Source: an uncultured Bacteriovoracaceae bacterium (GTDB lineage: Bacteria; Bdellovibrionota; UBA1018). Taken from it: DNA of 25,875 bases. The position numbers and the translations under genes are program-made. Shown one piece after another: positions 1 through 151 of this stretch (positions are counted from its first letter, which is position 1; every line of letters starts with the position of its first letter). The notes under the pieces were generated by a model that was not told the origin of the DNA, searched no databases, and was given only the letters and a program-made list of their open reading frames with translations. The stretch is taken from the NCBI GenBank assembly GCA_964367865.1, contig CAYJBA010000001.1:1461-27335 (forward strand), in the 5' to 3' direction.

Positions 1-73
1 CCGGCCGTCTCAGTTTTTTTGTCCTACGCCCCTGGCACGCCGGGCCCGTTATATAATTTTTTAATGTTAATTT

Positions 74-151
74 TGGCGGTGGGGGTGAGATTCGAACTCA
101 CGACCCCTTGCTCCCAAAGCAAGTGCGCTAGCCAGGCTGCGCTACACCCCG
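74..151 (-). tRNA. tRNA-Pro (anticodon UGG) with aberrant, poorly paired acceptor stem; possibly chimeric or non-functional
   Basis: Minus strand reads CGGGGTG-TA-GCGC-AGCCTGGCTA-GCGC-A-CTTGC-TTTGGGA-GCAAG-GGGTC-GTGAG-TTCGAAT-CTCAC-CCCCACC-G-CCA. D, anticodon and T arms pair perfectly, the anticodon is TGG and CCA is encoded. The acceptor stem pairs at only 4 of 7 positions. Confidence 0.9.

Follow-up and report, generated by a model that had tools for sequence, protein, structure and literature searches.

A hybrid tRNA-Pro/tRNA-Ser gene beside a scaffold gap in a Bacteriovoracaceae genome is very probably an assembly chimera

The window examined in this study is a stretch of 25,875 nucleotides from an uncultured Bacteriovoracaceae bacterium, and it corresponds to C1:1461-27335 of contig C1 in a metagenome-assembled genome (MAG) of 405 contigs and 2.7 Mb that is 83% complete and has roughly 6x coverage. 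Base 1 of the window lies directly after a 10-N scaffold gap (C1:1451-1460), and 57 fixed gaps of this length are present in the assembly. The runs that hold the organism are groundwater metagenomes. A tRNA gene with an odd 3′ end occupies window positions 74-151 on the minus strand, and is flanked by genes for an M28 peptidase on the left and a FecR-domain protein on the right. Gene order is poorly kept among relatives, where the FecR-like neighbour is retained in only one and the M28 peptidase in none.

Window 74-151, read as its reverse complement, is 78 nt long and forms a cloverleaf with an anticodon of the NGG form used by bacterial tRNA-Pro, specifically TGG. Reading along the minus strand from window 151 to 74, the acceptor 5′ strand is CGGGGTG, the D and anticodon arms are regular, and a T arm formed by GTGAG and CTCAC is followed by CCCCACC-G-CCA. 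This 3′ strand creates three non-pairs in the acceptor stem (C1.C72, G3.A70 and U6.C67), leaving standard pairs at four of seven positions. A 3′ strand of CACCCCG would give seven of seven pairs with CGGGGTG, and the deposited CCCCACC would likewise pair at all seven positions with GGTGGGG. The Rfam tRNA model matches the deposited sequence end to end, scoring 47.1 bits and showing the same non-pairs. The tRNA-Pro body, the unusual tail and the three mismatches reported in a preliminary description of this DNA are confirmed. ARAGORN makes no call on window 74-151, and because it misses the hybrid, tRNA-Pro(UGG) is lost from tRNA counts. The ARAGORN total for the whole assembly is 35 tRNAs, or 36 when this gene is counted.

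Two parts of different origin can be distinguished within the gene. Window 87-151 (minus strand) contains tRNA positions 1-63 and is a genuine part of tRNA-Pro(UGG), matched by the organism's own Logan contigs; it includes the 5′ strand of the acceptor stem, the D and anticodon arms, the variable loop, the 5′ strand of the T stem and the T loop, and extends three bases into the 3′ strand of the T stem. Window 74-86 (minus strand) is a foreign tail composed of A64-C65, CCCCACC, G73 and CCA, which is the same as the 3′ end of a GGTGGGG-type tRNA-Ser. The flank of this tail, running from the 10-N gap to the tRNA end, occupies window 1-73 and has a terminator-like half stem and a T-run at window 1-20. 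Foreign sequence is limited to the 86 bases (window 1-86) between the gap and the T loop. The hybrid junction at issue joins a UGG-specific anticodon arm to CCCCACCGCCA and an AT-rich flank.

The identity elements for ProRS are a C1-G72 pair in a paired acceptor stem and the discriminator base A73. Neither G72 nor A73 is found in the deposited sequence, which has C1.C72 and G73. The sequence also does not have the form of a class II tRNA-Ser, as its variable loop is 5 nt and its 5′ strand is of the Pro type, and its identity to tRNA-Ser is confined to the last 13-28 nt. Over positions 1-63, the body shares 90-94% identity with the tRNA-Pro(UGG) genes of genomes from the same family. Among relatives, C1 is paired with G72 in every one of the 13 tRNA-Pro(UGG) genes read, and all 12 that were read to the CCA end in C-R-Y-CCCG-A-CCA. 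The tRNA-Pro(CGG) of the same genome, located on contig C208, is canonical and ends CTCGC-CACCCCG-A-CCA. Its last difference from tRNA-Pro(UGG) is at position 46, such that the final 32 nt of the two are identical when the UGG gene is given a canonical tail. No second tRNA-Pro(UGG) was found in the genome, where tRNA-Pro(CGG) is the only other tRNA-Pro, and no tRNA besides tRNA-Pro(UGG) that would read CCA codons was found in the assembly.

Repeated sequences are seen downstream of several tRNA-Pro genes. Both of the tRNA-Pro-type 3′ ends in this genome are followed by the short motifs GGGACCGGCC and CCTTACTCACA (C208:1649-1750 and C1:1330-1372), which hints that the two trailers are related. 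In two relatives, G004 and G035, the last 19-20 nt of tRNA-Pro(UGG) recur as direct repeats about 170 nt downstream of the gene. They may represent remnants of att sites or else a neighbouring tRNA.

The tail is that of a tRNA-Ser. Exact matches to a 23-mer spanning from the T loop to the CCA are present in 89 species representatives, mostly Patescibacteria and some Omnitrophota, both of which are common in groundwater. ARAGORN identifies 83 of these loci as tRNA-Ser (67 UGA, 15 CGA and 1 GGA), all of them starting with GGTGGGG, and this agreement bears out the earlier proposal that the 3′ strand derives from a tRNA-Ser and pairs with GGTGGGG. The proposed switch point in the T arm also holds, with departure from tRNA-Pro beginning at position 64. 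The 23-mer is absent from all 400 genomes sampled across the organism's own phylum. A GGTGGGG tRNA-Ser was also sought in the same genome, as the preliminary description had suggested, and none was found; all four tRNA-Ser genes start with GGAGAGA. Judged by these sequence comparisons, the donor tRNA-Ser type is foreign to this lineage, and the distribution of the 23-mer suggests that the donor organism was probably Patescibacteria- or Omnitrophota-like.

Searches for the source of window 1-73 among the 89 tRNA-Ser loci, JGI metagenome contigs (two patterns), viral contigs and the run index gave no match, and there is no copy of window 1-73 elsewhere in the genome. In the runs, tRNA-Ser-like 3′ ends are abundant, with a summed depth of 130-1000, or 20-80 times the abundance of this organism. 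A tRNA-Ser(UGA) on one abundant contig (depth 53-98) can be aligned to window 73-107 with 3 mismatches in 35 nt, and apparently shares 21 nt up to the switch point, a length stated without the positions of its 3 mismatches. In most of the tRNA-Ser genes recovered, exact identity with tRNA-Pro(UGG) extends over only 16-17 nt. The donor type is present in the community and a conserved stretch lies at the junction; the exact donor contig itself was not recovered.

Contigs assembled independently from the same samples depart from the window at this junction. Logan contigs of four runs (X1, X2, X3 and X5) were placed on C1:933-2333, which is equivalent to L001:900-2300, where L001 coordinates equal window coordinates plus 1427. 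In X1, X2 and X3, a contig at depth 6-7 follows the window for 300-500 nt without a mismatch, through the 5′ flank and the tRNA body, and the matches all stop at L001:1514, corresponding to window 87. The piece from X5 (depth 4.8) starts at window 84 and has 3 mismatches. To the left of window 87, the 11 unaligned letters of X1 are GTCGGGGTGGC (plus strand), which read CTC-GC-CACCCCG-A-C on the tRNA strand and constitute a canonical tRNA-Pro tail. The loose letters of X2, taken as a two-contig consensus, are tRNA-Pro-like, while X3 and X5 provide the break point only. With the contig-supported sequence, the acceptor stem forms seven of seven pairs, including C1-G72, and the discriminator is A73. 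Contigs from the same samples therefore show CACCCCGAC at the locus, the sequence that the preliminary description had named as the sign of an artefact.

No comparable support exists for the foreign part. In the Logan contigs, depth is 0 in four of four runs for the bin covering window 1-36, and no piece reaches to the left of window 69. No indexed run holds more than one of seven sampled words of window 1-100. The junction is carried by no Logan contig in the four runs, evidence that consists of contigs, which drop rare variants. Moreover, the hybrid lies at a contig end beside a gap and is contradicted there by independent assembly of these samples.

The true locus can be reconstructed from the same data. 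As a hypothesis, we joined C1:1-1388 to the reverse complement of C1:1298-1339 and then to window 87 onwards, and k=31 de Bruijn unitigs were computed for this reconstructed locus together with contig C208. Because the UGG and CGG genes share their final 32 nt, the last 31-mer of a k=31 unitig leading out of the UGG body has to be the one beginning at G46. The predicted stop lies 11 nt past a shared 19-mer and ends ...GAC, and the X1 contig ends exactly there. This agreement means that 31-mers in the data join a UGG-specific base to G64, CACCCCG and A73.

Five X1 pieces agree exactly with the simulation in end point or length. A unitig end predicted at C1:1327 corresponds to record 1, which ends at L001:1294, the same base. 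A predicted 47-nt piece from the T arm to the trailer corresponds to record 2 (47 nt, with 6 loose letters and 1 mismatch), and a predicted two-copy piece of 42 nt to record 3, which is 42 nt long and has a depth of 12.2 compared with about 6 for single-copy pieces. Record 4 is 109 nt, as predicted for the spacer piece, and has 10 differences from the MAG; the MAG's inverted arm accounts for four of these, as expected, and the spacer for the other six. Finally, the tRNA-body piece is predicted to begin with 11 canonical letters, and record 6 has 11 loose letters. ARAGORN calls the reconstructed gene as tRNA-Pro(tgg). Public unitigs, through their lengths and end points alone, thus suffice to recover the true sequence across a scaffold gap.

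The contig end on the left side of the gap has its own peculiarities. An inverted partial copy of the tRNA-Pro 3′ end is located at C1:1287-1339 (plus strand), as compared with the true tRNA 3′ end, and in the deposited scaffold the arms of the inverted repeat are C1:1278-1339 and C1:1389-1450. The copy matches the last 13 nt of the tRNA and 29 nt of its trailer, 42 nt in all without a mismatch, and is located 49 nt downstream of the tRNA. It reaches into the T arm and T loop with two mismatches, giving a stem of about 54 bp, and a 180-nt minus-strand transcript segment has a predicted fold energy of -115 kcal/mol. No such inverted copy is present in the relatives examined. The last 111 bases before the gap (C1:1340-1450) fold back on the contig's own arm instead of entering the tRNA, and carry 11 differences from the X1 and X5 Logan contigs. 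All 11 are transversions, which suggests error rather than strain divergence.

A simple fold-back as the sole cause of the inverted repeat was considered and rejected in part, given the double depth and the spacer unitig. The inner 42 nt look like a real repeat, while the outer part and the 11 odd bases look artefactual. The genuine locus appears to hold the inverted copy beside a normal tRNA-Pro(UGG). The preliminary description had raised the possibility of a displaced tRNA-Pro 3′ fragment, and a fragment does lie left of the gap; however, it is inverted and stands beside an intact canonical end rather than being displaced. By its predicted fold, the inverted copy could sequester the 3′ half of the tRNA in a read-through transcript. 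It may be what a recombinase inversion left behind as a scar, or else a structure that acts in processing or termination.

We consider it very probable that window 1-86 is an inter-genome assembly chimera formed at a contig end. An assembly chimera was the third option offered in the preliminary description, and it is favored here in that Logan contigs from the same samples contradict the hybrid. The contig would have been extended from the conserved T arm into the tRNA-Ser 3′ end and flank of another community member, so that a tRNA-Ser tail replaced the last 13 bases of a normal tRNA-Pro gene. Three obstacles may have confronted the assembler: the last 32 nt of tRNA-Pro(UGG) are the same as those of tRNA-Pro(CGG) in this genome, the tRNA end with 29 nt of trailer is repeated in inverted form 49 nt downstream, and the community is rich in tRNA-Ser-like 3′ ends while the organism is present at a depth of about 6x. 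The scaffolder would then have placed 10 N between the two damaged contig ends.

We infer that the mishap itself was a crossing of the assembly graph at a short shared k-mer, with k small, or else came from a read that was chimeric or of low quality. Weighing against a chimera, the exact identity of 16-17 nt shared by most of the tRNA-Ser genes recovered is shorter than the k-mers usually employed by assemblers. The 21-nt overlap is implied for one abundant tRNA-Ser, which differs from the hybrid tail at 3 positions in the aligned 35 nt.

All biological readings taken together are unlikely. Because tRNA 3′ ends are classical integration sites, the hybrid could in principle be a real att junction, in which, in the strain or subpopulation behind the MAG, an element carrying a tRNA-Ser-type attP crossed into the T loop of tRNA-Pro(UGG) and replaced its 3′ end. 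The switch in the T arm, the AT-rich flank and the tRNA-Pro 3′ fragments just left of the gap all fit such an event. However, no integrase lies in the 1.4 kb to the left or among the first genes of the window, and only 86 nt of the supposed element precede a short scaffold gap in which the reconstruction leaves no room for a gene. No direct repeat brackets the site, the extra copies being only an inverted pair 49 nt apart, and the reconstruction explains the inverted left fragment together with an intact tRNA. With the canonical tail read in X1, the junction in none of four runs and the donor tRNA-Ser type in 0 of 400 genomes of the phylum, an att junction is very unlikely. The preliminary description had offered this option or a rearrangement between tRNA loci of the same genome, but no integrase is found on either side and no GGTGGGG tRNA-Ser exists in the genome. 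The reciprocal hybrid it proposed to look for is not present in the genome, nor is a second copy of window 1-90, and the sought second tRNA-Pro(UGG) and left-hand integrase were equally not found.

Readings that invoke change within the lineage fare no better. A tRNA-Pro pseudogene undergoing local decay, with four or five substitutions in the 3′ strand, would fit the lack of an ARAGORN call, and the decay would have to be recent with the other three arms intact. Random change, however, would not yield 23 consecutive nucleotides identical to a tRNA-Ser class of 89 species, independent contigs carry the intact sequence, and the gene affected would be the sole CCA-codon reader found in the assembly, which makes decay scarcely credible. 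It is also highly improbable that the MAG comes from another sample, with a strain in which C1:1340-1546, tRNA tail included, is genuinely different. Such a difference would agree with the 11 divergent positions at the left contig end and with the fact that no run holds all sampled words of the window, but it is hard to reconcile with 11 of 11 error-like transversions beside flanking kilobases with 0 mismatches, and would still require a cross-phylum tRNA-Ser tail. Similarly, we assign very little probability to a minority subpopulation, lost from the Logan contigs, that carries the hybrid by way of an element from a Patescibacteria- or Omnitrophota-type host. If true, this would be a cross-phylum att event disabling the only tRNA-Pro(UGG).

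The assembly chimera resembles the chimeric contigs and misjoins seen at tRNA and rRNA repeats in short-read metagenomes, in that the junction lies in the conserved T arm at a contig end by a gap. The low-coverage genome, the donor-rich community and the disagreement of independent same-sample assemblies are also typical of metagenome misjoins. Unlike the usual cases, the piece here is very short (86 nt) and yields a full-length, tRNA-shaped gene. Other gap-flanking ends of this assembly may hold similar short chimeras. The hybrid also resembles the attL and attR hybrid tRNA genes of genomic islands and prophages in having its switch in the 3′ half and partial 3′ copies nearby. It differs from them in that no integrase, element or bracketing direct repeat is present, population contigs have the canonical end at the organism's full depth, and the tail belongs to a different amino-acid family and to other phyla.

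Compared with canonical bacterial tRNA-Pro(UGG), the body is alike and the reconstructed gene restores C1-G72 and A73; the contigs indicate that the absence of G72 and A73 from the deposited sequence is an error. A seemingly coordinated, tRNA-shaped hybrid can be produced when the end of a MAG contig is wrongly extended by 86 nt, and caution is needed since an error of this kind might give rise to mistaken reports of att sites, tRNA editing or mischarging. The hybrid tRNA is an assembly chimera and no property of the organism: it is almost certainly not biological, and the organism's real locus almost certainly holds an ordinary tRNA-Pro(UGG).
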